Source of the DNA: Phoronis australis
Lineage: Eukaryota > Animalia > Phoronida
Direction: 5' to 3'
NCBI GenBank assembly: GCA_002633005.1
Contig: NMRA01000445.1
Location: 1-64,000 of the forward strand
Length of the DNA: 64,000 bases
This document shows, piece by piece, positions 12,201 to 48,900 of this stretch. The first letter of the stretch is position 1, and each line of letters starts with the position of its first letter. Under the pieces are notes generated by a model. It did not search any database. It had not been told where the DNA came from and saw only the letters and a list, made by a program, of their open reading frames with translations. The position numbers and the translations under genes were made by a program.

Positions 12201-12676
12201 TCTCAGTGGGTGTGTGTTCCCTATTGGGTCTGTGTCTCAGTGGGTGGGTGTTCCCTATTGGGTCTGTGTCTCAGTGGGTGTGATGCTGGATGAAAGACTG
12301 CTGGGTACGCTTAAAGCTAAACCAGAATGGTAACAACATTTTGTTGGGAAAATTCACTTAGTGTGAGGAAATGTTTATTACGTAACCAACTTGTGGAGTC
12401 ATGATTTTTGCTAATCGTTTTCAGTGTACACAGTTCATCAGTGCCCTTAATCTCACCAAGACTATACCTTTAGTCATCACCACAGTGCTGAATCCTGAAG
12501 ATGTCTGTGAAATTGCTGGTGCTTGTAGTCCAACTCTGTCGCCAGAAGATGTCGCCACAAGCCGTATGATGTCAGCTGTGAGCATGCTGCTGAAGCAGCA
12601 CTTGCCAGATAGCCAGGTTGACAAGATGAATAAGAATTTGAAAATGAAAAAGAAGTCATTCTCTAAAGTTTTATAA
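3152..12676 (+). CDS. Saposin-like (prosaposin-family) protein, signal peptide plus two SapB domains, 7 exons, 274 aa
   Basis: Exons 3152-3221, 5204-5253, 6087-6221, 8637-8736, 10561-10715, 11814-11876, 12425-12676 all have AG/GT boundaries and join in frame (825 nt). Two six-Cys SapB patterns: CYGC..DC..C..IC..LC and CTFC..VC..C..VC..AC. Confidence 0.88.
5204..5253 (+). CDS. Saposin-like gene exon 2
   Basis: tttcag / (G)APLSHEPPQHEKVGKD / gtaagt; bridges phase 1 to phase 0. Confidence 0.75.
6087..6221 (+). CDS. Saposin-like gene exon 3 (SapB1 N-half)
   Basis: ttgcag / GLVCYGCKTLIGVMKDRLSKNETWQLLKRKLQKDCMILSSNNTQL / gtcagt; NET sequon at the usual saposin glycan position. Confidence 0.85.
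6236..6900 (+). mobile_element. Decayed Helentron-associated (HINE/DINE-1/pearl-like) repeat
   Basis: Begins with short inverted repeat atgcacccgcata / tatgtgggtgcat, then a cgtccg remnant, then degenerate subunits (gaaatttggc, ccctagtgg) shared with 15430-16580 and 41700-43330. Right end approximate. Confidence 0.45.
7267..7697. mobile_element. Foldback-type MITE with long modular TIRs and 5-bp TSD (TTATC)
   Basis: Termini CAAGGCACCTAAAC ... GTTTAGGTACCTTG; arms of about 190 bp are reverse complements built from about 21-bp AAACACG-containing subrepeats; TTATC at 7262-7266 and 7698-7702. Confidence 0.85.
8637..8736 (+). CDS. Saposin-like gene exon 4 (SapB1 C-half)
   Basis: tttcag / CSSVVPVLMDFLHSVLTLNSSAICQQLTLCPKS / gtaagt. 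Confidence 0.85.
10561..10715 (+). CDS. Saposin-like gene exon 5 (linker and SapB2 start)
   Basis: tttcag / (G)FESTSLK...NGLQCTFCKFLAGAIDKYLLTKV / gtaaga. Confidence 0.85.
11814..11876 (+). CDS. Saposin-like gene exon 6
   Basis: ttgtag / DSVANYVQDVCKKLPEPASQD / gtaagt. Confidence 0.85.
12017..12281. repeat. 34-bp minisatellite, about 8 copies (CCCTATTGGGTCTGTGTCTCAGTGGGTGTGTGTT)
   Basis: Unit starts at 12083, 12117, 12151 and onward; explains the three overlapping repetitive ORFs here. Confidence 0.95.
12425..12676 (+). CDS. Saposin-like gene exon 7 (SapB2 C-half and tail, stop)
   Basis: tttcag / CTQFISALNLTKTIPLVITTVLNPEDVCEIAGACSP...SFSKVL, TAA at 12674-12676. The 3' end of the model is the least certain part. 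Confidence 0.8.
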   Translation, partial: CTQFISALNLTKTIPLVITTVLNPEDVCEIAGACSPTLSPEDVATSRMMSAVSMLLKQHLPDSQVDKMNKNLKMKKKSFSKVL

Positions 12677-12934
12677 GTGGGCTTGTTTGCAAGCTGGGTG
12701 GTATCTGTTATCCTCCAACATTGTGCAATGTTCAGAGAAATGGTAATTTTATGCAAATTGTTGAGGTGTTTACAGCTTCAGAATGGTGTTTCCTGTGTTT
12801 GGAAATCTTTATGTTGGAAAAGTTTGTTACACTATTGTTTAAGAAAATTAGATGAATATTGATTTGCAAAGTACTTTTTTGTTGTTATGCCTACCTTAAA
12901 GAGAAATTATTGCGAGAAAATTTATTTTTTAAAT

Positions 12935-13024: not shown

Positions 13025-13131
13025 TCTTATAAGTGCTTTTAAGCACTTATAAGATATGGGCTAAAATTAAGGCCAGCGACTTTACAAATTAAAATTTGTA
13101 AAGTCGCTGGCCTTAATTTTAGCCCATATCT
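13025..13131. repeat. Two abutting perfect inverted repeats (14-bp arms and 39-bp arms, each with a 2-nt spacer)
   Basis: 13025-13054 TCTTATAAGTGCTT-tt-AAGCACTTATAAGA; 13052-13090 is the exact reverse complement of 13093-13131. Confidence 0.95.
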
Positions 13132-13539
13132 GGCAGTCGATGTTGCCTGAATTGGCAATATGTTGTAAGTCACAAAAACGGCAACAGTGTTTGTTGTTTG
13201 ATAGCTATTGTGAAAGCTATCAATTGTCTATCCCACCCAACAATAATCTTAAAAGTGTGTTTTTTCGGTTATGAAATTATAGTGATCCTTCCATAACTTG
13301 TTAATTAGAATAAGTTTAATGATAGTTTTTGCTTGATTGGCCCTCTCGTGTGCTTACAATCGACTTGTGTAGGAGGTGAAACACTCGCTGATCACAGTAA
13401 ATCTACATTTCCAACCACTGGCAATAGATCCTTTAAATTAACTACACTGCGATTAATGTGTGCATCAGTTTTTCTCTATTTCTGAGAAGGACAATTTTTG
13501 TTTTTTGTTCCGTAATCAGTTACTTTGCTGTATTCTTGT

Positions 13540-24258: not shown

Positions 24259-24928
24259 AGCAAAAATTCAAACTTTTGTAACTAAAAAGATCTAGACATA
24301 ATCCTAGATAATAGGTTTATCAAAAACGGCTCGGGCTCGATTCGCCGGACTGATTCNCGCAGCCAAGTCAAGTTATTTTTTGAAATTCATCCTGGTACGG
24401 GAATTGGGGATAGTTAGGCCTATAAAAGATCTTTAACCCAGCCGCAGAGCGTCTAAAGCCGCGCACCGTACCAGTGACTGCTGGCAACTCATCGGAGACT
24501 CAACTTTATCATCCTTCGCCGCAGAGATAACAACTCTTGGGCTGTCTCCAGTGAGTCCATTCTTTGTTGAATGATGTTTAGATAAATAAAAAAAACTTTC
24601 ATCAGTAATTGTGGTGTGGAAGTCGAAAATTTTGAGATGCGTTTCTTATAACAGACTCTTGAAGTCTCCGCTATATCTAGTCTTCTGTAATAGTGCAGCT
24701 TTACAGAATGATTTTGTAAATGTTGTTGGACATGGCTTTTTCATTGTTGTTTGCTTCAGTTACTGGCCTTCTTAGCCGAAAACAAAAACATTCTCTCGCA
24801 GATCCGATCATGTCAACAATAAAATCCTGAATGTGAGTGGCCGTGAGGATTTGGAATGTTTTCCATGCCTACGCTTTGCGGTTCGTGCGCACACGTGTAC
24901 CCAAATGTGATCAGATGTAAAAACCTAC

Positions 24929-29976: not shown

Positions 29977-30933
29977 GGTAGGTTGGAAGACATAGTATGG
30001 ACACGTATTAGTGTGACTGTCTTGCAAATCTTCTAAGCTTCGAGTACGTCTCCCTGCTTTTTACAGCGCATTCGTCAAACAATGCGCTGCAATGTAAACA
30101 GTCTACAATGTACTTTCCATGGCCTCTAACCTTTCACCTTTTTCCACGCAGGACGGGATGCTTCTGTAAGTTTTCCCGCTTAGGTTTCGTGTTTTAGGAA
30201 TCAAGGAAGCGTCGTCAGTTATACCGCCTCCGTTCTGTTCTTCGTCTTGAAAACGAATCCGTGACTGGTTCGGCGATTTGCTCTTTGACGTCTGTGTTCG
30301 AAGAAACTGGGCAGGTGGTCGTAGTAACGAGCTATCAACTCCGTCAGCGCCGGTGCCATTCGGCGAAGGTTCACTGTCTTTACCGTCGTCTGGGGTATTG
30401 CCGGACTGACTACTTTGTTGTGAGCTTCTCCACCCTGTCGCTTTCTTGTCGTAANGGTAGGCTGGAAGACATAGAATGGACAAGTATTAGTGTAGCTGTC
30501 GTGCAAATCTTCTAAGCTTCGAGTACGTCTCCCTGCTTTTTACAGCGCATTCGTCAAACAATGCGCTGCAATGTAAACAGTCTACAATGTACTTTCCATA
30601 GCCTCTAACCTTTCACCTTTTTCCACGCAGGACGGGATGCTTCTGTAAGTTTTCCCGCTTAGGTTTCGTTTTTTAGAAATCAAGGAAGCGTCATCAGTTA
30701 TACCGCCTCCGTTCTGTTCTTCGTCTTGAAAACGAATCCGTGACTGGTTCGGCGATTTGCTCTTTGGCGTGTGTGTTCGAAGAAACTGGGCAGGTGGACG
30801 TAGTAATGAGCTATCAACTCCGTCAGCGCCGGTGCCATTCGGCGAAGGTTCACTGTCTTTACCGTCGTCTGGGGTATTGCCGGACTGACTACTTTGTTGT
30901 GAGCTTCTCCACCCTGTCGCTTTCTTGTCGTAA
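29977..30933. repeat. 478-bp tandem duplication of the GluN2 last exon and 3' UTR split by an N (probable uncollapsed haplotypes)
   Basis: 29977-30454 matches 30456-30933 with scattered SNPs; the junction is N 30455; copy A has no splice acceptor. Confidence 0.9.
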
Positions 30934-30993: not shown

Positions 30994-33900
30994 CTGGAAA
31001 AATAATACCCCGACTAAAGTCATAGTGACACCTGAACGAAATTTGGAGTGCCAAACCCAGTGCTGTAGTGGGGCGTAGGCGCACGTAGGCGCAGCCAACC
31101 ACCTTTTGGCATTTGAACGTAGGGCCTACGCACCGTAAGTTACGTTCAGTGCTAAAGGTGATACAGTGGGCTTTGGGCGCCTACTTACCTCCAATTGTAC
31201 CACTACAGCACTGCCCAAACCGTGACGGTTCAACGGACTCCTGTTTACGCTATATTTGTGTTCTTTTCGCGCATAATTTGCACGCTGTTAGTAACAGAAA
31301 TGGGTCGCAATGACACGCTGTAAAACGTGAAAGGTTACGTACTGTGCACGCCTATCCATCAGGGCCAGGATGTGAACCTGGCTCACAGTGACAAGCGATA
31401 TTCACAAGTGATTCCCGTAAGTCAATGCTGCCAAATTTTTAAAGAATTTATAACGATTTCCATGCAACTCCCGCACAGTACACAGACATTTCACTGACAT
31501 TTCCGAGCAAGATCATAAAGTATTCGTCAATTTCTGTATACATTGATTCAGTACATATAAAAAGTACTTGTGTACGACAACGCCATACAGGAACTGATGA
31601 ATATTGTACCGAATGAGCGTGTTTCTGACGAGTTTTATCACGATGACTTAGGTGCCAGCGCGCTCGACTTAATCGTGCAATGCTGGGGTGGCCTATCTAC
31701 ATGTAGGTCTATGCACGTCTGTGCGGAAAAAGTATCAATGACCATGGAAAATAATTAAAAACGTAGACGCAGCTGTGGTGGCATCGTTTGCTTAGGTATA
31801 AGTCATCTCCAAAAACGGAAAAATATTTATACTTGTAAAGTGAAGAAGAAAGTCATAACGTACATTTCGTTTACATGTAAGAATATTTTCCTTTGATTAA
31901 AACCTCCTGCGATTTCAAGACTTAATTACCACTGCCATACATGCATACGTTTAGATAAGCCTACATAGCTTTACCTGAGTCTGTTCTGAAGTCTCTCAAT
32001 GCGAACCAGAGCAATGTCTAGCTCGTGTTTGACTTTCCACATTTGCGTCTCACAAAGAGGATTTTTACATTTGAAATGTTTTTGGACATCAATCATCTCC
32101 ATCACGGATTGTTCAAATGTCAGAGATTTCCCCATGCTCTGGAAAGAAGTGCACGCGCGAAGATTATCAAGTATAGCTTCTGGTAAGTATGAATTCAGTT
32201 AAGGGATCGATTACACCACATGCGCGCACCCACGGGGTGGGGGCTCGCACGAGATCCCCCTCCCAATTTAGGCGAAGTGGGCAAAAATGGCAACCACTCC
32301 ACCTCAAAGATAACGAGACAAAAATCCATTTAAAAGGCAGGAATTACTACAATTCGGCGAATGCACAACTCATAGCTCGGTCGCAACGTACCTCGTGAAT
32401 CGTAGTAAAAGGCCCACATTCTCAAAAATTCGAGCTCCCCATTTTATGGGTACGCACATGCACCAAACTTGTTCTCAAAACGTTGGAGCAAGTCTTAAAA
32501 CCTTGATGAAACAGGCTGATGGTGGGTGGAAACGAACGACCTTGACCGAACATGTACATCGAATGTGACTGTCCATGAGTGTAAGTGTAACGCGTGTCTC
32601 CAACAATCATTCGTTTCCTACCCAGTGCATACAGCCCGTTGTGACAGCGCCCTCATTTGGCTGGCCCATGAAACATTTTCAAGTTAAGCCACATGATGGG
32701 AAGGAATACTGTTTCTTGTCGGAGTTCTATGCTCTCAGAATATTCCTCATGACGGATTTAGAGGGGGGCCAATTGGGTCATACATTCCCCTTAAAACTCT
32801 CCTATATTCCATTTGGCAGTTCGGGGATGCAAGTGTATGACTGGCAATATCCTGGCTAGTATTCTACCCTGCCCCTCGCTACTAACTAAAAATCCTGTAT
32901 CCGCCCCTTTTTTCCAATAGCGGTGACAAAAACTGGTCGGTCAAATCACCAAGATGAATGTATTGTGTATATATATACTTACCAAACTAATGAGACCACA
33001 ACAACCACATTTATCCCACTTGCTCAATTTCCGTCGCATAAACTTGAAATACATGTGCTCCAGCAGCATAAGTAATACAGACAGTAACACGCCGCCAGCT
33101 AAAAGGTAGTAAGCTGAGGTGAAGTTGATAATTTCGAGTGGGTGACTAGTTTCAAGTCCCTTACTTGACTGACCAGTCTTACAAGCTCCAGACATCCAGT
33201 ATGACTGAAGTTTCTCCAAAATACCTGAAATAGTGTAAACCAGTCTCAGGGGCTGGAAACCACTCTTACCACACACTGCAAATGAAACTGTTACCACGGA
33301 GAAAAAAAAACTTACCAAGGAACCTGAACTCTAACCCCACTCAGGCATTCTCAACGCACGCGAGTTTAATTCAAGTGACCCAGAACACAACATAAAACCT
33401 GGACTCAAAACCTATTAATCTCACCTTGTTTTTGATACTTCATTAGCTGCTCATTAAATTTTGGTAGCCACTTGGCGTCACCCTTTGGAAACCCAATACC
33501 GTATCCCGTCATGGCGTACCACGCCCCTACAGTGCGAAGACGGCAATCTTTGTCTTTCCCCGCCATGTAGTCTAGCACGGTGGCATCATATATGAACGCA
33601 TCAAGATTACTGGAAAATAAGACCTTCGTGTAAACAGACCATTGGTGCCACCAGCAGATGGCGCTAAATCATGCGATGAAGGCACAGTTGATGTAACATA
33701 ACTTATTTGATAATCACTTGCTCCAACAAAAAGCAAACCTCACGAGCAATTGTTCCTGAGTAGTAAGTAGACATGGGCGCACCCAGGGGGGGGGCTCGGC
33801 GAGGGGCTCGGGGGGGGGGCTCGAATCAGTGAAACAAGAAGTCGGAGTAAACGAGACAAAATTCCGCAAAGTCAACAGGAATTCGGCGCAGATGCACGAT

Positions 33901-36900
33901 TAGCAGGCGGGAACCTATTGGCCTCGTTTTTTTAGTCCTCATTGATTTTTCCAGTGAAAGGTCCGATTATCGAGCCCCACCCCCGGCTATATTTTAGGTT
34001 GGGTGCGCGCATGGTAGATAGGCATTTTAACCTCCTAAATTCTGCTAAGGTTACCCGGACAGGGAGGTGAGATATTCTTACGACTGTACTCATTAGTTTT
34101 GTTTCAATTGGAATGGGCTGAGATCCGTACACCCAAATCATTAGCACTGTATTTGTGGCGGGAAATTGTCATTTATGAAACAGAAAAGACAAATTCCATC
34201 CCACAACTTAACATTTCAATGTCACAGCGGCCATTTTGTTAGGGCACGCTGTTAAACCCTCCGAGCACGCTTGTGATTCGAAACTCACGTCTACGGAGCG
34301 CATGCGCAGCCTAGATTAATGAGACTAAATTTCACAGAAGCATGACATCTGCAACCAAACATGTGGAGGTCAACTTACTCTTCTTTGATCATTTGTATGG
34401 CGTCTACTTTACTTGGTAGAAGAAAGTTATTATCTCGCATGTACCGATAGAGGCGCTCGTGATTATTTCGTAGCACATTGGCCGTATTCCCCGAGTTAAG
34501 TGTTCCGTATCGAAATGCTGGCTTTGTTGCTTTAGGAAATTGAAGCTGAAACGAATATTGAATGGAGTAGACTGGAGAAAAGTCCGTAAAATACATTCCC
34601 TGAATGTTCAGTCACACACTTTTAAATTCATCGGTTTTTGATCCTGCAGTCGTCTGCTCTTTAATTTGACGTCGCGCCATCATGACCGTCGTCGTTGTCG
34701 TCATTATAATAATCATCATGAGCGATCATTTATATATCATGCATAAAAGTTTAGACTAAGCTTTTGTAACTGTTATCTGTTCCATCATTCCAGTCTAGTG
34801 GCTACCTTTGGATCTTGCAATCCTCTAAGTCGGTAGAAATCTTCTTTTGCGATCATGAAGGCAGCAAGATTAGCTGTGTAACTTGCAAGAAACACAAGAG
34901 CAAACAAAGCCCAGATGCTGCCCATGAAACGACTAGCGACCCCTTTCGGCGTGTCGGTGTCCACGGCAGCTCCAAAGAGCATTGCCCATATGAGCCAAAA
35001 CGATCTGAACAGGGAAAATTTGTGGTCTGCAAAACAAGTGTTGTAGGTCGATTAAAAAACAATAGACGTCGCTCATGAAGAAATGCATAAGTAAAACTGT
35101 CAATGCTGTGGAAGCTATGGAACTGAACCAAATGAGTCTTCCCGCCAGCAGTAGGATGTAGACATAAAGTTGCTGACGACAAATCGACTTAAAGACGCCA
35201 TAAAAGTGCCTTCCGCTTATGAAAATAAATTTCGATATAGACCACTTGCCGCCGTTAAATTGGCTTCAGTTTTGTCCTTGAAAGTCAGAGGTGATATGTT
35301 GGCTGGCAAAGACCTGTGTGAGAACTGAGACGTTTAATGGGACTTTTTCTGTCTTAAATCGGACAAACTTAAGGCCATGATGTTTAACCCCTTGACATTT
35401 CTTAAGACCAAAATTAAGACCGAAATCGGTATGTGCTAACACCGAAAGTGAGCCCGCTACGGAGTAGATTTTAGATTGGCTTTTTGTCTACTAGTTGACC
35501 CGTGACCAAACCTACGACTATCACCACTGTAAACTGTTGAGGAGCAAAATTTCGTTGATATTTTCAAAATCTTATGGCCCTAAATAATGTTAAATTGCGG
35601 ATCCACTGCTTTCAATTCGAGAACCGGCCAGGCTACAGAGGCTGAGGCATGCAGTGCGATACTTTAAAGACACTCCAAGGTCTTCTCAAGCAAAAGACAT
35701 CCCAATTGTATCCAAAATGTTGTAAATTAATCATCTCATTTTGAGTTTAAAGATCAAGATGATTCTTGATATCGCAGTTCACACACGGCTTCACTTAATT
35801 CTGTAATTTCGCAACAGTTGTTGAAAGCGTAGTTTTTATGGTCACGTATGGAGAAAACTACTTAACCTCGGTTTAGTTAAGACCAAAGACCAAAAACCAA
35901 CTTTGCGTTCACGAAACGATGTCTTCTGAATTTTCGTCTTTGGTCTTAACAGTTAGCCCGAATTTCGGTTTTAACTCAGACAAAGTTTTAGACTTGGGCT
36001 AAATCTTTTTAAAAAGACTTAAGTCTTTTTAAAAAGTGGTTAAAACCACTTTTCATGAAACGGGCTCCAGGCTCTGCAAGTCGACTTGTCGCGGCGGCGA
36101 GTTATTCTGTGCACCGAACATTGTCTCAAGTGATGACGAACTGTCAGTTTTCCGGGCACAAAAACCACTTCTAGAGTTAGAAACAAGTTGTGAACTAAGT
36201 CTTACAGTACGCGTTATACGTGAAAGCTAATATTCCTCGACAAGTGATATTTGAAATGCTTTTCATAGTACTAACATAATCTATTCCAAAGTACTTAAAC
36301 GTAATTACAAACATGGATCTGTTAGTTACTACATGGATGACCTGCATAAATGAAAGAACATGGTGAAACAGTTAGTAACAGTGGTGCGGCGGCTGTAAAA
36401 GATCAGTACGGACTTTTGTCTTCAATCCTAACTCTATCGCGAGAGAGTAAATATCTCGAGACGATCCCCATCTCTACTGATAGACCTACCATCGATAAGG
36501 TTAGTAAGGCTATTGATAAAAAGTCGTATCGATAGCGATACCAACTCTATCGATACTATCTCTATCGATAAAGATACTGTCTATGTCGATAGAGTTAGAG
36601 AAGCTTTCCCTAAAGATAGAGATATTGAACCTTAAGAGGTACTAAATCTATAGATAGTGTAACTACTTCTACCGAAGAATCACTGAGTCTATAGACTGAT
36701 CCCTTACAACCACGCATTTAAGATGGAGAAACAAAATACACGAGGTAGCTGGCAGAGTAGGTAGACCCAGAAGAGCATGCTGGCACGGAAGAACATGCAT
36801 GGAGAAAGAAGAGGTATTAGACTGGCGTAAGTCTAGTATACGGGGTGTCCCAAAAGTAATGGCTGTCTGATTTAAGTGCTTGTACATTGAAATTGAAAAA

Positions 36901-39900
36901 TAGATAGTCATGAAAAACGGCTAATGTATAAGTGTCATTTCTTTGGAAGGTGCGCACATCAAAAGTGGAGTTGCTAACTTTTCCGATTTGAATTGGTGCT
37001 GCAAAAATGTTCGATCTAGTGACTCCTTTTGAGTTGAGCGAAATCACGTTGGTTTATCATGCTAGTCTGTAATTATACCACTTGCTGAGCAAATGAGGTA
37101 ACACCCTGCATGACATAAAATCGTCCTGGGTATTAGAAATCACACCCGTTTTAACATGGCTGCAGTGCAATTTTCGAGAGAACAACGAATATTAGTTGTT
37201 CATCAATGCGGCATCAGTACCAAATTACTTATACAAACCATCCAAGCTTTTTGGAAAGAATACCCAAATCTTCAACTTCAAGTAGAAATTAAATTATTGA
37301 TCGTAAACTTGTGGACAAATTCACAGACTCAGTGCTCTTAGAATAACAGGCATAGGAAGGAATGCGATGATTACGGTAAAGTGCGATCCAGGGCTACGGA
37401 TTTAGTGCTGTGCGTGGAATTAGATTGAACACAAACATAATTTAACAAACTTGATTCAGTCAAAATAAAAGTGATATTTGTATTCATTAGCAACTTTATT
37501 TCTTTCCATTAAGAACTAAGCGAAATTCCTTGCGTGTTTTCAGTCGGATAGAACTGTGAAAAAACCAATGTAACAAAAATAATTCAAATCTCGCTTCAAG
37601 TCACTTTCCTGAATATTTATGTACTTATTTAAAATGATTGAGGATTCAAACTGGGGTATCATTACTTTTGGGACAACATGTGCAGTCTTGGGCATAAATA
37701 AGATCCAACAACAAGGCTCGGTTTTGAGCACTCAATTGGAAAGGACGCACCCGTAGAGCATTGTCAAAGATTTGAGAGACAACTATTCATGAAAACCTTT
37801 CAACACCGATTTTTAACCGGCAGGCGAAAGACAAGCAGGCGTCACATTGGGAGCTATTTCCCGTCGTTTTACTGCTAAAGATAAGCATACACTACTATTC
37901 GTAAGCCTGGGTAAGGATTTAATTCGTTGAAAAGTTTAAGATGTCCTGTGTCTGACATTAGAAGTAGCGAAGTTTCGGAATAAGCGGACACCTCTAATAA
38001 ACCCTCTACTTGTAGGAACTTGATCACGACTCCACTGTTATCAGCGTGTACCAGATCACGGGAATGACAGTTTGTGAAAGGTGTTTGTAGAGAAAGTGAA
38101 GACGGTACGAATTTTGACCATTACTTTACCATTGCTATGTAGATATCTGTCGAGTCAATATTATACAAAATATGATAAAAACTAGTGTAAAAATTAGTTG
38201 ATGGCAGACGTTTCAAACTGCTCGTGTTTTTTCAAAAACAAAATTCAAATCTGAAATAATCCAGGGTTCACTCAGTTTTGATACCCTGGCTTTGACAAAC
38301 AGCAAATGAAAGCGCTCTAGAGTGCGACACTTGGCGAAATTGAAGGCAAAACGATAATAATAAGGAGGACGGATTATTATGATGACAGTCATCATCTAAA
38401 CCATGACTTAGCAACGTAAATTGTATGAGTACTACAACGATGATCATTCAATCAGAAGGCGACGATTGACGAAATTGAACAAACAATGCAATGACGAAGA
38501 CGACGATGTGTAACAAATATGGTATCCATGACGATGAAGATGAAGGAAAAGCCTTGTGCAACGTTGGTTAATTTACAATGAAGCGATGAATGTTCTGTAA
38601 GTAAAAGAGCAGCCGCCAGAAAACCTACAATAATCGTCGTAATAAGACGCGGGTGTGACTCCGTTCTTGTAGCTCTTGAAGACATCAATTCCCATTACGG
38701 AAGAAAACTATTTAAACGACTGCCGAGCTGGTGGCTCCGTAAAGTATGATTAAAAACAGTGCCATTCTGTGTCCAACTATAAGCGAACTAATATCACTCG
38801 AGATACTGACAAATTAAATGCTGTGTATCAATGCCATGTCACTCGGACGAGAAATCGGATCTGCATGATGCAAATAGTACGAAAAGTCTAGAAGCCACGT
38901 TTTTCTTTTACCCTGGAACGATTGTTGGTACTAAGCCGGGGACATGTCCTAGCTAGTAACGAACCTAAACCTTCAGTAAATCTCCAATTACTCGAGAGCA
39001 TTAAGTCATAGCCACAAACAGATGATGCAATTTCATAGCCCTTGGCAAGTTCTCCACATACCAAGTTTCAGAAAGTTGGCTCAAAGGATTGCAGAGCTGC
39101 GGTAACGTAATGCAAATTTTTGAAAAATGACTGCCTCAGCGCCATCTTCTGTCTAACTTAAACCACAAACAAAAAGCTCCACGAGAACCAGGTCTTTTTG
39201 CTGCTGTTTAGCTGTCTTTAATGTTGAATTCTCAACCGAAGCGCCCATAGAATCATTGTAGCCGAATGAGCCGGCAACTCAAGGCACCAACAATGCGTTT
39301 CGATGCGCCATTTCCAACTGAATTCGCCCAAGTTTGGAATTGGCCATCTCGAAACGTTTTCTGGAATCGGTGATAGCATTGATGTTCTAGTTGGTAATCC
39401 TGCCCCGGCAAGGAATATTATGATACTCCGACGTCATAAAAATAAAGGCTCTCAATTTTCGTTTTTAGCCAGATAATCAGGGCGAAATACAGCTGTGAAA
39501 TGTCGTGTGCACGTTCTTCGTTCTCCTCCACAACCCCACAACTCACTTGTGAATGCGCTCAAATCTCACGTTAGCGACAACCTACATAAGACTCGGTGTT
39601 CAACATATGTAACCTTGAACCCTCAAACTTGTTCCAGGTTGAATATACGTAATCTGCATCGGATATTACCGAGTACGCACAGAGAATGTGGTGTATTCGT
39701 TATCTGTTTTTAGTTAGAACCGGATGTAGTTTTGAACCAACCAGTTATAGAGTAAACGTGTCAACTTTCCACTGGTAATTTAGAATACACCACAGAGAAC
39801 TCTCTCGTGCGTACAGCTGTCCTCACACCCCTGAAGACTGATCGAATGAGCTTTATGGGCAAGAGTACCAAAGGATCCTCAGACATGCCGATGCGGAGAA

Positions 39901-42900
39901 ATTGGGGCAGTAAGTGCACGTGTTCACGTGACTTTCTTGTCCTTGACGGCATAAATTCTGTTTTCACTGCTGTACTAGTGAATCGTACAACCATTGCGTC
40001 GTTGGTGAATGTTACCGACAAATGAATGGCCACTTACGCGACCAAAGTCAACAAAAACAATACGCATCGATTTTTTGATGAGTTGTATCCCGTAGTTGAA
40101 TTTTAAGAGGATTCAGTTCACCAGAAATTGGAACTGTGTGCGAACGATGAAACAAACAGAATAATGCGACAGCGCAGCATACTTGGCGAAAAAAAATTCG
40201 CCAAGTAAACATGAGTGGCACGTCTATTTTAGGAGAACTGACAGATAACGCACCAAATCGAGCACCTGACTAAACAGTGTGCGTGAATCTAGCAAGCACT
40301 GGTAAAGTATCTTGAGTCGTTAGTGAGTGTTGAAGCGCTGCTGATATATACAGATATTCTGACCTACCTCCGCTGTCGTCATCTATATGGGTATAAAGGG
40401 TACATCAAATGAATAAATTCTGTGTGAAACTAGGAGGTACACTGTAGTTCGGCCAGTCCGTAGGAATAGGTTTATGACATTCGTAAACATTTCGTGGACA
40501 TCAGATTGACAACATGTTTTTATTGTTCAAGATTGTCTTGTGAGGACGAAGTTTTCAAACGTTTTAATTAAACAGTCTCACTTGCAAAGCATAGATTATG
40601 CTTTAAATCATGACGCATAATTCGAATGTGGGTTATCGGGAAAAAGACGACGTAAAGCATTTGAAATTGAAAACTAAGTTAGAAGAATTTGTGAATGGAA
40701 CTTTGAAGGTGTTACAATCTATTGTGACTTTCGAAATTCCTTCTTGAGTATTTGGAAACGTGCTCAGTAACAGCTGAAATTAAGTTGCGTTAACATAAAT
40801 GAAAATAATATTCCCCACCTTCAATGTAGGTACCACATTTGTACACTCCTTAAATTTTGAGCATATTGTGTTAGGCAATGTAATGGAATTAATTTCATCA
40901 AAGAATGGAGCGGTTTTTATAGAACAAAACCCACAAAACTCAATCACTCTAATGTTGTAGAACATACTTATTAGCGGATACGACAAAAAACGTTATCGCC
41001 GCCATTTTGTCGTAAAAATGCGGTTGGCAACATTCCACTCTCTTGTGGCATCACAGATCCGCCAATGATACTATCGCCTGTAGTGTGACGTTGAGTGTAG
41101 TCCACAACCGTCACGTAATATTGCAGAACAGTTTTTTCCTTCCCATAAAATTTGAAATTACTGATTAACTGAAATTCAAAACCATGGGACATGCAAACTT
41201 AAAAAGTGTAATAAAGGGACAAAATGAAATGGATTGAGGACAAAAAAATGTCTTCGACAAAAGTAGCGATTGGAAATTTCAGAGTCTGTTTAGAAATACT
41301 ACAATTTTCAAAAAAGTACGCTACATATATAAACTTTTATCCTTTTATTTGTGTTCACCAGTTACACAACAATGAATGAGTCTAGTCATGAGTATTAAGA
41401 AGCCGCAGAGGCCCAGTGTGCAGCAAAATGGCGATCCAAGAGGTGGCAACCAGGTAGTGGTGGTGACCGGGGCAATTGATTTGGTATTGACAGGGTTTGG
41501 AATTGGCGGTCGACGGGGAGATGGAATTGGTGCCGAGTGTGGTTGGTGCCGACAGGAGGGGCTGGAACTGATGGCCACGAAGGATAGAACTGATGGGAAT
41601 TGGTGCCGAGTGGAATTGATATCGACCGCGTAAAAAATTCCAGTTCAGCCAACCGATGCTGCTCGCGGGGTACTCCACAACTCATCAAGCTTCAGATAGT
41701 GGCACTCTAAATGTCATCTAAAATTTACATTGATTCTAAGGAATCTTCAAAACTCAACCAATATTCTAAACAAGAGCAACGCGAAATGTTGAAATGCGTC
41801 TGCGATTGCCGCAAATAGCAAGCCTCTGGGAGTGTTAATTAGTATCATAAAAATCGCCACTATATGGCACTGAAGACGTCGAACGTGTCTAAACTTTGGA
41901 AGGCGTCGTCGCAACTTTTTGCCACATTTCATAAAAATACGTCGTGGAACTCGAAAAACACGTAAAACACATTCCAGTAGGAGAATGAGGGCTAACTGGA
42001 CAAGTTCGCCTGTTGGCAAGTAAATGGAAAAACACTTGCCACATTTCACAAAGCTCCTGTACGGGATTTAGGAGAAACAGTCGTATATGCAAAAGTGTCA
42101 CCACAGCAGTTGGACCCATCAAAAATGCACATCAGTCATGTTGTTGTCAGACCGAACAAATCTGCCAATTTTCATGGTGATCCTCTGAGCAGCGATACAG
42201 CGACAGGCGACAAAAACTCGATTCTAAAATAATAAAAATGGTCACCGAAATGGAAAGGCGCCGTTGCCAAATTTCAAGAAAAATTGCCAAGGAAGTATGA
42301 GGATACAGGGACAAATGAAAAACTAATCGAAAAGTCGTGTCCAGCCATTCTCACAAGAAAGCACTTCCAACAATTTCACAGAAATCCTGCAAAGGATTAA
42401 TCAGGTATGCCTGCGCAAGCAAAAGAAATTAATTGTCAATAATGACCGTCACAGATGTCAAATCCGTCCAAAAATGAATGTCAGCCGTGGTTTTGTCATA
42501 AGGAACACGTCTGCCAATTTCCATAACAATTTTTGAGCGGCTTGGTTAATAGAGAACTGGACGGCACAAACGGACTAGAAAATGGCAACTAGTTGGTACA
42601 AAATACGTCGAATCCGTTCAAAAACAAAAAGGAAGGCATATTTGTTTACTTAATAGAAACCTATTTGCCGAGTCCCTGAAAATCCATTAATGAATCCCGA
42701 AGATACATAGGCAAACACAAAAATGCCACTAGGAGGTAGAGTCACGTGGTATTCGGATAGGCTCGTCGTTATCACTGGTTGTCAATTCTATAGGAATTTC
42801 ACTGATACCCTGTAAAGCTTAAGGACAGTCGGCCGTGGACGAAAAAATCTCCTCTAGGCAGCGACACTGTTGTCGAACCCGTCCGAAAACAAATGTCAGT

Positions 42901-45900
42901 AGCCGCACTGTTCTTGTCGGGAACTCACAATTTTCATAATGATCGTTTGAGCGTTTGGCAGACAGAGAAATTGACGCCAGAAAACAGACTCCAAAATAAG
43001 GTTACAAAATGGCGTCGATTTCGTCCGAAAATAAAATAGTATCGCCATCTCATTAATAGAAACTCATTTGCCAAATTCAGGAAAATCCATTAACGAACAC
43101 CGAAGATACAAAGACAAACGTGAAAAATGCCTCTAGGGATGCATAGCGGTATTTGAATCAGTCGTCATCCGTCGTCAGCTTCATAAAACACATCTGCCAA
43201 ATCTCATTAAAATCTTTCGAGGGGTTTAGGAGATACGGCAGCGGACGTCGGGTGCCGGACGCCCGGATTCCCAGATACACATGACGGCAATATACACCCA
43301 CGTGTATGTATACGTGGGCGCATAAAAATAACTGGTACATTTCCAGTACAGCCAGCAAAAACCCGGGAATGTTCCAACTATTTTTGTATAATCTACGCGA
43401 CGTGTCTTTACTGCAACGTGTTGGTTCTGGATAAAATGTGCCGCACTTGAAGTGACATTAGACTTCGCGTCTAATTAAGGATCATACCTAGGCCTCTATC
43501 ACGTAGGTGGCCCCCTGACTAAGGGCAACATTTCAATATTTACCTCTGGGTCCATTTCCTCGATCAAGACCGCGCGGGCTCAGCCATTCAAACACGAAAA
43601 TGGCCGTCCCAACAGCGTGGACGCTAAATACAAGTATGAGACACCAAGCTGAGAAATCGTAAGGTTCTGAAAATCACAAACAAAAAGGCATTCAAGTCCA
43701 AAATGCATAGAACCCCGAAATTCAAAAACTAAAAGTGCAAAAACCTTCAGAAACAACAACACATATAATGCTTGTTTCAAACGTTGCATCATTCCGTTCA
43801 ATGGTCTTTAAATCACTCTCGCGTTTGGGAAACGTTTTCCTGGTTGTCCCTACGTTAGCGAGATATTTGGATCATAGACACTGAATTGATGGATGTATGG
43901 TACAATTTCCGCCATTGAATCTGATGCATCAGAAATGTGGCATCGTTTGAATAATGATGCAAGAAACACATAAAATTCTCTTACATATCACACTAAGACA
44001 TACAAAGCTTACAACGTATAATAAGTAAAACCGACATCTCGACGCAGTGTAAAAATTGAAAATATTCTGAACGGAAAAAATGCATTCATTTTCTCTTGAA
44101 ACATAATTAACGCATTCATATTATTTAAGCTCAAGCCGTAATCGTCGACAAGTTTCCAAGTGCAAAACTGGAAAGAATTCTAAAGAGCAACAAAGAAGAG
44201 AGAGCGACAGTGGAGACGAATTGGTGACATTGTAAGATATAAAAATTCATCGCAAAATTCACTACACATCTGATACCTTTGGGAGGCTTCTTTTTTCTAT
44301 TATAACCGAACGGACTGATCCATTCGAGAATGAACACAGTCACTGATACTACCGTTATACAGACTAGAAGTATGAACAGCCACATCAGGAGTTCAAACGG
44401 TTCTGAAAAGTAGGTCAACATACATGACCGCTAGAGATGTCACGGAGTTACGGACCGTCGACGTGCCGCAATTTGGAAGCAGCCACTCAACAAAGTCATC
44501 GGCTAGTATGAACAGTTATACAGCGTTCACATGCCGTCCGATAAAAAGGCAGATCGGATGTCTGGTCGCTGCCTTAAAAAACACGTGTGAACTCTCATAC
44601 GTCTGATTTGCTTTTTTACCGGGTCAAGCGTATGATCTGCCTTCTTACCAATGACCTAACTTGTGGTTAGGCCTAAGCGGTCGCACGTACAATAACTCGC
44701 CAGAATATTAGCATTTTTCACATTTTCGTAAAACGGCTTAAGGAAGCATTAATTTTAAGAGGCTCATTTGGCTTCCGGTCAGATATCCTATCTGCTCCTT
44801 CATAAAGTTCCTATTTGAACGATCCGAAAAATTATTTGTTCATACACGTCCATGAGGTTATGTATGACCTCGTAAGAGGTCAATACATTTAGCCAATTGT
44901 CTAGATTATTACGTAGAAAACCTGTGATTTTTAATTTCAACTTGATACCAATCTGAAATTAACTGGGCCACTTGTTCACGTCTTTTTTAGTAAAATTTAG
45001 GAAACAAGAAACGTATACATTCATAGCAAAACAGTGGTACTAATGACATGAACACAAAATGTCAGTTCAAGTAAATTATCAATAAATATATCTTAAAAAC
45101 ACGGTTACAGATTTCTAAAACGTCATTTCCTATTTTGTTTCATGCAACTTTTGACTGTTTCCATAAAAATCACGAAAGTCCTCTTCTTGATAACCTCCCG
45201 TGAAATTCGCAACCTTGCGGTGGCTGTGATACGACGGCACGGCAACTATTTTTCTCCATTGCCAACTCTCATTAAGTCTATCGATAGACTTACTATCTCC
45301 ATCGATAAACTTACTATCTCTATCGGTAGACTTATTAACTCTATCGATAGAGTTAATAAGTCTATCGATAGAGTTAATAAGTCTATCGATAGTGTTAGCA
45401 ACGGAGAAAAATAGTTGCCGTGCCGTCCTTTCACAGCCACCGTAGACTCATTGTTGTATGGGATATTAGTTTTTAACTACTAAAAGCTCTGAAACAGCAA
45501 TGTTTCGTGATATTTTTACAAATCGTGAGTTCTCATCGTTGTCTACCAGACATTAACTGAAGACTGGTGATTTATCATATAAGCACGCTTGAAATACGCT
45601 TCGAGTTAACGCTTGGCATTTCAATCAGTGCCACATCGCACAGCTACTGCTGTGGAAATATTGGGTTCGCTTCCGCAGGTGCTGCTTTCTGAATATTACT
45701 TTTCTCGCTAAGAATGTTCCTAAAAGCGTTTTGCCGACCAACGCGTCAAGCATAATATGCGAAAATTCCACATGAATCCGATCAGCCATTACTGAGATAT
45801 GGAGTTGTGAAGTTAGCCAAATTTGGACATTTGTTTAGGCTCCTACGTAACTCTAAGTAGTTATTTCACTAACTAAGCCCATGATGCCAAAAAACTTTAG

Positions 45901-48900
45901 TTGATACGAGGTCCGCCCGCTTAAAAATTTGATAATGTTTAACAACACTCTAAAAAACTACATGTGTGCTGATATTTATTTTCATAAAGAAAGTGGTGTA
46001 CTGGGTCCAAAACAATGTTTGCATAGAAAACCAGAAATCAGTAAGCTGTTTAGCCTGACGACCTACCTGTCTTGAAGTTCCGTCGTATAAACTTCTGCTT
46101 GCAATTTTACTGCGTTGCCTTCGTCTGAATTATTCCAATGTGCTTTAAAATGTTAGCGTAAAATATCTGCCGAGCTAAGTCCAAAAAGAACCAATTTTTT
46201 CTTGTTAACCAATTTCCTAATTCGTACTCCAGAAAGTGTTCAGATGGACTAAGAATATTTTGTCGACAACTGAGGTTTAGGCTAACACTGAACCTTGCAA
46301 AACTATGGAACCCTGAACCACGTACCTAGAAAAGCTGTAGGTGATATAACTCCCTTCTTAATGCCAACAATGATGGTAATTCCAGTCTCAAGGAAAGGGA
46401 GTGAAAAAGAGATGGCGTCAGACCTGTCATTGTTGATTTTAAGAGATGTCAGACACATGTCGGCTTTGTGATCCATTAGAGACCTTACAAGTCCGTTCCA
46501 TTCCCCGGTCTAAAATGAAGCATATCCTTTTATCGTACGTTATATCGCAAGCGTAATGGAATCTCTTGTCTGTGTAATCTAAGTTTACAAGAACAACTAT
46601 ATCAAAGTATTTCAGCAGCAAATTGGTTCACAATTTTTACGTAGCTGTGAGAACGAAAGTCATGAAAAGGCGTTTTGCATCATTTATTCCCACAAGGGAA
46701 CACTTCTTGTGTACTCATATGAACGTGAGGCACCACGACATAGTTCGCTAGGCCTAACGATTTCTTAACTAAAACCTTTACAATGAAATACAGCCGATAG
46801 AGATGATGTGAAGAAATAATAATTTATTAGAAAAACTCACTATTTTACTGAACTTTCAAAAGTTAGAGAAGTGGACTATTATTGGACAGCCCGAACCGCG
46901 TGCTGCCATGGTGATGACCTCGTTTAGAAAGAAACTGAAAATCACTATGGCAACGCGCGTGTTCCGTTCACTTGACCGGTAATCGACTGCGCACAACCGG
47001 AAGTAAAATACCTTTTACCCAGGCTTTTGTGCTCGTTATGAGTATTAGATAATACACGCTAGCGTTAGAGTGCGTAGTAAATACTTTTTGGACGTACTCG
47101 TGTGAATTCATTTTGGCGCCAGTTATATACATAAATACATACATACATACATACATACATACATACATACATACATACATTCACACATTCATACATACAT
47201 ATATACATAATTACATTCATGCGTTACAGGGCATTATTTTAGACAGCTGGATAGGAAAGTCGTTGTTGCTTTCTGCTAATAGGCTAAAATCGAATTTAGC
47301 ACCTAATATGATATTCTGATCAACAAGTATTCAACACTGTGTCCCTAACTGCTACTCATCCCTCTATACATTGTTACACAAACATGTAACTATTGTCCAC
47401 AAGATAATCAAGCAATGTGAACTCGAAATGCTCAGAATATTCCTCACCGCGTTGTCACCCCACTTATTGTCTTCAACCCTAAAGAGTTCGTATTCGAAAC
47501 CAATGTCTTTCTCAAGTCTTTGCAGCAAATCAATGGCCAGCCCAGAGACGCACTTGTACGTATAATGTTCTGGATTTACTGTGCCGTTAGGATTGCTGAA
47601 AGATTAAGTGAATAAGACGTTCACGAAAAACAAACAGTATTTCTGCTTCGGAAGTGAAATACTGTGCAGAAAGTTAGTATTGGCAAACCAAACTTGCCAA
47701 AGGAAAGTTCTCTCCGAAAAATATTTCCACGGATTGCATGTTCTGATTTCCATTCATACACTCGCCGAAAACAATTTGTTTTCAATGACCGATACGTGAA
47801 TGCTATGTGGGTAGTGCAAGGGAAAGCTAAGTAAACGTTTCTACGAATTATACTTAATGATAATGACACTATATTACACTCAGTTCAGTGGTGTAGATTG
47901 GAAACTGATGCAAATAGATACTTTCCTTGAAATGGAATGACTTACGGTTTGAATCCAGGTTTGATCTCCCATCGTGCCCTGACCATGCTCTCACGCAAAC
48001 AAAGCCCCGTCTGTTTATCTACGTCGGTAAGTAAAACGTAAGGTTCCTCGTCTAAAGTGACTATTCTCAGCTTCCATTTCTTTGGTCTGTCCTTTGGAGG
48101 TTGGGGAGCGCCACCAGGCCATTGAATTTCGTCTAGAGTAATTTTGTTGACTGGATTCCATGTGCCAACCTGTAAGGTAATTAGGTTCAAGGTCCTCGCC
48201 TGGCAATACTTTGGTGGCACAGAACAGTTTGGCTACAGCCACGGCCAGTTTACAGTGCCACTGAAAAATATATATTCTAGGGGTAGGCCAGTTTCGGGGT
48301 CAGTTTTAATCTAAGCGTCGCATGTAGGTTTGTTTGTATTTGTCAACATGTTGGGAATGAAAAAATACTTATTTGTTCGGCTGTAGATGCACACTTCTTC
48401 AAGATGACTGCCCCTGTTGCAATTATGCATTTCTGAGTAGCCATTGAGAAGTCGACTGTGATTTCAACTAGCCATCGGAAAAGTAGTTGGTTTACAGTAC
48501 TTTTGCACCACATTTTTGAAATCTGCAGGAATTTTGGCTTCCAGAACCTCATGTTGGCTTATGTCGCGTATTGGCAAGGAGGTGGTGGTTTAGGGTGAGA
48601 AGTGGCAATTTTGCGCTTTTCCCCCTTTTTTCTTAGCCTACCTCGCTTTGCAGTAGGAATGAAAGTGGCAAAAATACTAGAGAGAGTAACGTTTCTGTGC
48701 TCATCTGTAGGGCTTTTGTTGTGAAACGACTCACAACTTTTCTTTCTTTGCATAAGGCTTTCGATAGAGGGTAGAAAGGTGACAAGACCATTGGTGTGTT
48801 TTCTGCTGTGCAAAACCCAGCGAGAACTAGGTTAGCTCCATTGTTGTGTACGTGTGTTCAGAGTGGGCGCACTTTGACAATAAACCTTCAGAAATGATAA

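Follow-up and report, generated by a model that had tools for sequence, protein, structure and literature searches.

Tandem pre-M1/M1 exons, likely spliced as alternatives, in the GluN2 NMDA receptor gene of Phoronis australis and other spiralians

The window (the whole stretch of DNA that was analysed, 64,000 nucleotides of Phoronis australis contig NMRA01000445.1) contains a minus-strand NMDA receptor GluN2 gene in which two homologous exons, A and B, lie between a constant S1 exon and the M2/M3 exon. We think that this is an old tandem pair, common to annelids and molluscs and likely spliced as alternatives, with one M1 per mRNA and two gating variants as the outcome, and we would put the probability of this reading at roughly 0.8. 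The exon pair itself is real, old and under selection in spiralian GluN2. Its alternative use is supported by the skipping of A in RNA and the A-only and B-only pairs of molluscs, as well as by a tandem order that relatives have conserved and by the purifying selection that acts on A. A sequence-only reading of the same DNA had presented the two-isoform gene as a trait of this animal; the alternative use has gained support, but the arrangement is not special to it, being old within Spiralia. In the order of transcription, the features of the gene are:

47946-48169, minus strand: GluN2 exon, start of the ligand-binding segment S1 (tblastn; joint 47595-47946 in reads; upper end from sequence)
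47448-47595, minus strand: GluN2 exon, middle of S1 (joints 46509-47448 and 47595-47946 in three RNA runs)
46326-46509, minus strand: constant S1 exon, ending in ...SPTAFL with a phase-1 donor (tblastn; read joints at both ends)
44277-44402, minus strand: exon A, pre-M1/M1/start of the M1-M2 loop, arthropod-like type (126 nt; tttcag/gtatca ends)
43667-44276, minus strand: A-B intron, 610 nt (60-nt AG-free zone before B)
43544-43666, minus strand: exon B, pre-M1/M1/start of the M1-M2 loop, spiralian type (123 nt; tttcag/gtaaat ends)
40368-40382, minus strand: micro-exon of 15 nt, acidic five-residue insert in the M1-M2 loop (2 X3 reads; AG/GT ends)
34806-35026, minus strand: constant M2/M3 exon with SYTANLAAF (tblastn; joint 34545-34806)
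34379-34545, minus strand: first S2 exon, single copy (RNA reads; open frame)
33425-33609, minus strand: second S2 exon (RNA reads; open frame)
32983-33224, minus strand: exon with the end of S2 and M4 (tblastn; RNA reads; open frame)
31975-32138, minus strand: conserved C-terminal exon (tblastn; open frame)

Both members of the pair have AG/GT borders, phase 1-1 and intact frames, and the coordinates, splice sites and translations agree with what had been noticed from the letters, namely two intact exons 610 nt apart. The strong divergence between them was also confirmed, as 12 of the first 36 residues are identical. Both align without gaps to GluN2A 552-587, and the position of GluN2A 553 is occupied by Phe in A (codon 44395-44397) and by Tyr in B (codon 43659-43661). 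An M1 profile of 74 distinct segments, applied to the six frames of the whole window, matched only A and B (83.5 and 49.0 bits, the next match reaching 9.7 bits), with no third M1 copy in the window. The flanking S1 and M2/M3 exons, which had been described as single, were indeed found in one copy each by tblastn with six full-length relatives. A and B are adjacent, homologous, of like length and in the same phase, as tandem-duplicated exclusive exons are, and one profile matches both. All six splice paths tested are open and in frame, the A+B path included. The assembly has letters N at 24357 and 30455 only, none of them in the region of the exon pair.

The identity of the gene as GluN2 is given by its S1-M1-M2-M3-S2-M4 layout together with SYTANLAAF. 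The M2/M3 exon reaches up to 86% identity to spiralian GluN2, and 120 of its 183 listed matches are spiralian GluN2 proteins. Among solved structures, the best matches of both A and B are GluN2 chains, with A closer to the vertebrate ones (best 35.5 bits) than B (19.9 bits). The five downstream exons give an open frame of 325 residues that falls among non-mollusc spiralian GluN2, nearest to Capitella (61% identity) at a fork without resolution; in this constant-region tree the Paralvinella row was left out and the Octopus row replaced, both being too short. The exon structure proposed earlier between B and M2/M3 has to be corrected, since it overlooked the micro-exon at 40368-40382: two X3 reads link B to M2/M3 via 13 listed extra letters that map there. 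At this junction spider GluN2 models (P0273, P0285 and P0288) have a short insert that is likewise acidic.

The use of the exons was studied in four RNA runs (X1-X4), chosen by species label and mapped on 32900-48300, with a second pass over 43400-44600. Of the three large raw-read runs, 18-19% of each was read, and three reads were taken as the threshold for a joint. Joints between constant exons are present in reads of the three raw-read runs. The joint from S1 to B is carried by 7 reads of X1, 3 reads of X2 and one X4 contig, and by none in X3. Loose ends at the acceptor of B, 7 in X1 and 4 in X2, all correspond to the end of the S1 exon, so that 11 of 11 reads across this acceptor in X1 and X2 skip A, the depth sums leaving no room for others, and none of the 11 arrives from A, at what is a low depth. 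B is the dominant form in the RNA seen. No joint from S1 to A, from A to M2 or from A to B was found at the three-read threshold in the four runs, for the 18-19% read of the three large ones. Over A, X1 has a sense depth of 1.61 in one bin and 1.02 in another and none further on, which by depth arithmetic amounts to two sense reads ending at 44404, also found by count among the partly aligned reads. This position is the acceptor of A plus two letters with which the S1 exon also ends, and at the acceptor of B the offset is identical. The two reads are likely an S1-to-A splice, perhaps from one molecule or fragment, and they inform on the acceptor side of A only. Of the junctions that the sequence-only reading had proposed to look for, S1-to-B skipping A was seen in 11 of 11 reads, and use of A appears only as two sub-threshold reads. 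A steady sense-strand intronic depth runs over 35000-43500 in X1-X3, as is expected for unspliced precursor in total-RNA libraries.

The same arrangement is present in relatives. Gene models of Batillaria, Nucella, Paralvinella, two Biomphalaria, Candidula, Elysia and the Pacific oyster carry the tandem, always with the A type before the B type, so that the search for this arrangement in related genomes gave a positive answer in annelid, snail and oyster genes. In addition, the ENA frame P0186 reads through A, intron and B. A metagenome scan gave 15 loci, four of which (L012-L015) were dropped for their weak 15-residue matches, leaving 11 with a real B exon; seven of these have less than 700 nt upstream of B and are silent on A, and four are informative. 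A lies upstream of B with intact splice sites in L003 and L004. The other two, L010 and L011, have no A and belong to a bivalve paralogue type, in which A was likely lost after gene duplication. This B-only paralogue extends over 3027-5057 in L010 and 799-1312 in L011, with an S1-to-B intron of about 240 nt in the latter.

Isoform pairs from one locus, one with A only and the other with B only, are found in RefSeq for six molluscs (Magallana gigas, C. angulata, C. virginica, Saccostrea echinata, S. cucullata and Haliotis rufescens), and the members of each pair differ only inside one span of 42-47 columns. Among Logan contigs, P0051 is a full-length A-only protein (1075 aa, contig of 3647 nt) and P0420 a full-length B-only protein (1077 aa, contig of 3736 nt); 37 of their 41 differing columns fall inside the A/B span, and the contigs barely exceed the coding sequence. 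Each exon is therefore found alone, B in the RNA of this species and both A and B in the oyster and abalone isoforms and the Logan contigs. Among 238 stored proteins that span the region, 162 have B only, 9 have A+B, 10 are spiralian with A only, 53 have a single M1 of arthropod type, 3 have none and 1 is a mis-model. P0101 was removed from the A+B class, as it has B plus an insert, and the single M1 of arthropods is that of gene models, so a second genomic copy could still exist. The A+B class includes the older C. gigas RefSeq models P0050 and P0130, and neither exon is present in three mollusc models, from Aplysia (P0015), Mya (P0110) and Mizuhopecten (P0116); such models may reflect mistakes in annotation or assembly, or genuine leakage. 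The proposal of mutually exclusive use stands in so far as A is skipped in the RNA of the species itself and A-only and B-only isoforms exist in six molluscs, but strict exclusivity is no more than a possibility, given that A+B and neither-exon models exist in relatives.

With regard to the history of the pair, a tree of 54 M1 segments places all 24 B rows (from the window, annelid, molluscs, ribbon worms and flatworms) in one clade supported at 100/99. The A rows form no single clade and stand without resolution beside 13 arthropod rows, and A resembles the single arthropod M1. In this tree the A of the window has at best 61% identity to its two nearest sequences and an end branch of 0.68; the A branches of oysters, abalone and pulmonates have lengths of 1.5-3.3, that is, a fast divergence. 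Because the tree has 43 columns and rough, unsettled bootstraps, and because the AU test kept a tree joining A and B of the window (p 0.09), one old origin is not proven by the tree alone. Most of the case for it comes from two phyla having the order, the phase and the exon types in common. The exon duplication would then be older than the annelid-mollusc split and, as flatworms and ribbon worms have the B type, it probably also predates their branching off. A would have kept the ancestral sequence, which is arthropod-like, and B would be a derived copy turned default.

Selection can be followed between L003 and L004. For exon A the count is 17 differences over 27.5 silent sites and 2 over 95.5 replacement sites (Fisher p 4e-12; dN 0.021, dS 1.30), and exon B has 20 silent differences and 0 replacement differences (dN 0, dS 1.84). 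These values point to purifying selection on both copies, and the dN/dS below 1 that had been put forward as a check holds for A and B in this comparison. Against L003 and L004, the A of the window has replacement divergence of about 0.24 and silent divergence of 0.67-0.81, the replacement value for B in the matching comparison being 0.17.

These data bear also on other ways of explaining the pair. One of them, which we regard as unlikely, is that A is an alternative exon without a second working channel, being used rarely, alone or with B, in a non-conducting or retained subunit that lowers the output of the receptor. The A+B models of the Pacific oyster (P0050 and P0130), the rarity of A in the RNA of this species, its fast divergence in oysters, abalone and pulmonates and the fact that all paths are in frame, so that nothing is removed by decay, would fit such a role. 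Against it stand, however, the strong purifying selection on A, a full-length A-only protein on a public contig and the fact that A is nearer to solved vertebrate GluN2 than B. Moreover, the annelid-like and caenogastropod copies of A retain the pre-M1 Pro-Phe, the M1 Trp and the E-W-x-S-P end.

That the pair is old and used elsewhere, and that the A of this species is a decaying left-over which is hardly spliced, seems to us quite improbable: its frame is open, both splice sites are intact, two reads stop at its acceptor, and its replacement divergence is well below the silent one, even if its end branch is long, no joint to it is listed and loss does occur (A is missing from two of the four informative loci, which belong to a single bivalve paralogue type). 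That two paralogous genes or haplotypes were joined into a chimera in the assembly, a refutation that the sequence-only reading had itself named for the case of paralogous genes, is extremely improbable. Molluscs do have several neighbouring GluN2 paralogues, and joins exist elsewhere in the assembly, such as a 478-nt direct repeat beside the N near 30455, but the reads splice from S1 to B across A and onward through single downstream exons, there is no N in the region, and the same order is repeated in independent genomes of two phyla.

Coming back to an old pair spliced as alternatives, the question arises of how the choice is made. In exclusive clusters of the docking/selector (Dscam-like) type, conserved complementary intron elements compete, and in steric or frame-enforced pairs there is a branch point near the upstream donor or a frameshift when both exons are present. 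Three A-B introns were compared: they are 610 (the window), 607 and 1119 nt long, and the zone without AG before B measures 60, 106 and 44 nt, respectively. These lengths and zones do not support a steric clash as enforcer, nor is frameshift or decay supported, the A+B path being in frame; the earlier statement that neither NMD nor steric hindrance explains exclusivity agrees with this. The complementary docking/selector elements suggested for the flanking introns did not appear: the best stems in nine intron pairings lie within the range of shuffles, the best case being equalled by 1 of 20, in a search that is blind to elements that are short or confined to close relatives. Nor were conserved intron blocks found, as the introns of the window, L003 and L004 do not align. 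We propose that A is likely silenced by default and switched on by cell-type splicing factors, which would silence B whenever A is chosen. By the topology of glutamate receptors, inclusion of both exons or neither would leave the pore preceded by a different number of membrane helices. The resulting proteins would have the wrong helix number and likely be useless, which would mean selection for one-at-a-time use at the protein level.

As for the effect on gating, all 24 B rows have Tyr at the position of GluN2A F553, where Phe stands in 14 of the 17 A rows and in all 13 arthropod rows; the oyster A exons (3 of the 17 A rows) have wholly lost the EP-Phe motif. According to the available text of PMC7141592, GluN2A/B have Phe and GluN2C/D have Tyr here, F553Y in GluN2A cuts the open probability from 0.22 to 0.12, with no macroscopic effect of F553Y alone in rat GluN2A, and Y578F in GluN2D raises it from 0.0055 to 0.0086. 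A would place Phe and B Tyr in the pre-M1 aromatic network, with the whole M1 helix being swapped. By analogy with the Phe/Tyr effect on open probability at GluN2A 553 (PMC7141592, as far as available), channels of the A type would likely be easier to open than those of the B type. A switch of the M1-M2 loop from polybasic to near neutral had also been proposed; the A loop is +5 here, but the other 16 A loops range from -2 to +4, so that the polybasic loop is peculiar to this species, and loop charge was rejected as a functional switch because of this variation. The Phe/Tyr switch in pre-M1 is the better functional lead. A fuller account, which we hold as tentative and somewhat below an even chance, would be that one duplication before the annelid-mollusc split made a splice switch between a Phe form of high and a Tyr form of low open probability, in a single GluN2 gene, chosen by cell type or stage and converging on the difference between GluN2A/B and GluN2C/D that arose in vertebrates through genome duplication.

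In comparison with known systems, the closest likeness is to flip/flop of AMPA receptors (vertebrate GRIA1-4), where tandem homologous exons of an ionotropic glutamate receptor are used as alternatives and tune kinetics (PMC13520880, available text). The flip/flop pair lies in the S2-M4 segment, at the back of the ligand-binding domain, whereas here it is the pre-M1/M1 and M1-M2 loop of an NMDA GluN2 subunit in Spiralia, with far more diverged copies (12/36 identical); as had been noticed from the letters, the pair is analogous to flip/flop at a different position, and it is not flip/flop itself. The vertebrate difference between GluN2A/B and GluN2C/D (Phe553/Tyr578) concerns the same pre-M1 Phe/Tyr position (PMC7141592, in part), but between separate genes, and here two exons of one gene are involved and the rest of M1 changes too. 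Oyster and abalone RefSeq GluN2 isoforms (e.g., XP_011454502.3 and XP_019930458.3) alternate between A and B at this very exon position, although they are machine annotation only and the oyster A is much more diverged than that of the window. The exclusive exons of the insect nAChR alpha6 are likewise duplicated alternatives in an invertebrate ligand-gated channel, but of the Cys-loop family and not a glutamate receptor, and of unrelated origin (PMC1919356, available text).

The sequence-only reading knew of no description for GluN2, and no description of alternative M1 exons in any GluN2 was found in the accessible literature, subscription papers being outside the search. The isoforms could be mentioned by Ha et al. 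(2006), who reportedly dealt with NMDA receptors of Aplysia and Lymnaea, or in a paper, said to date from about 2021, on the cloning of an NMDA receptor from oyster. The available text of PMC5225553 reports more Grin2 genes and splice variants in chordates than in protostomes and contains no Grin2 exon choice. GRIN is absent, as is GRIA, from the main text of PMC9741552 as far as available, its supplements being outside the scope, and the part of PMC13520880 at hand notes that, for the invertebrates studied, work on splicing is still to be done. This mode of splicing is a familiar one, and the mollusc isoforms are already machine-annotated; it is a description of the pair that was not found.

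The diversity of GluN2 has so far been credited to gene duplication in vertebrates. A conserved alternative M1 exon would be a second, hidden route to NMDA receptor diversity, placed at the gate, in molluscs and annelids, which include classic learning models. It also supplies exchanges of the pre-M1/M1 segment that were made by nature and tested by evolution, in a place where disease variants of human GRIN2 cluster (PMC5240934, available text). Besides, it is a warning that a cloned or annotated invertebrate GluN2 may stand for one of two forms, or be a wrong two-helix model.

Some further observations concern the rest of the gene. The first S2 exon (34379-34545), part of the lower lobe of the ligand-binding domain, is unusually diverged (29-36% identity to relatives) and yet is spliced and in frame. 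In L003 this exon, which follows M3, forms a second tandem duplication (12549-12725 and 13064-13237, plus strand, both with AG/GT ends); the window has one copy, with no second S2 exon copy found in it. The 478-nt direct repeat already mentioned is 97% identical, extends over 29977-30933 with the N at its seam (30455) in a region resembling the last coding exon, and is likely an assembly overlap of two haplotypes. Inside the S1-to-A intron, at 45218-45442, there is an inverted-repeat element of about 225 nt with short internal repeats, probably a small transposon, and a similar stretch lies near 36430-36680.
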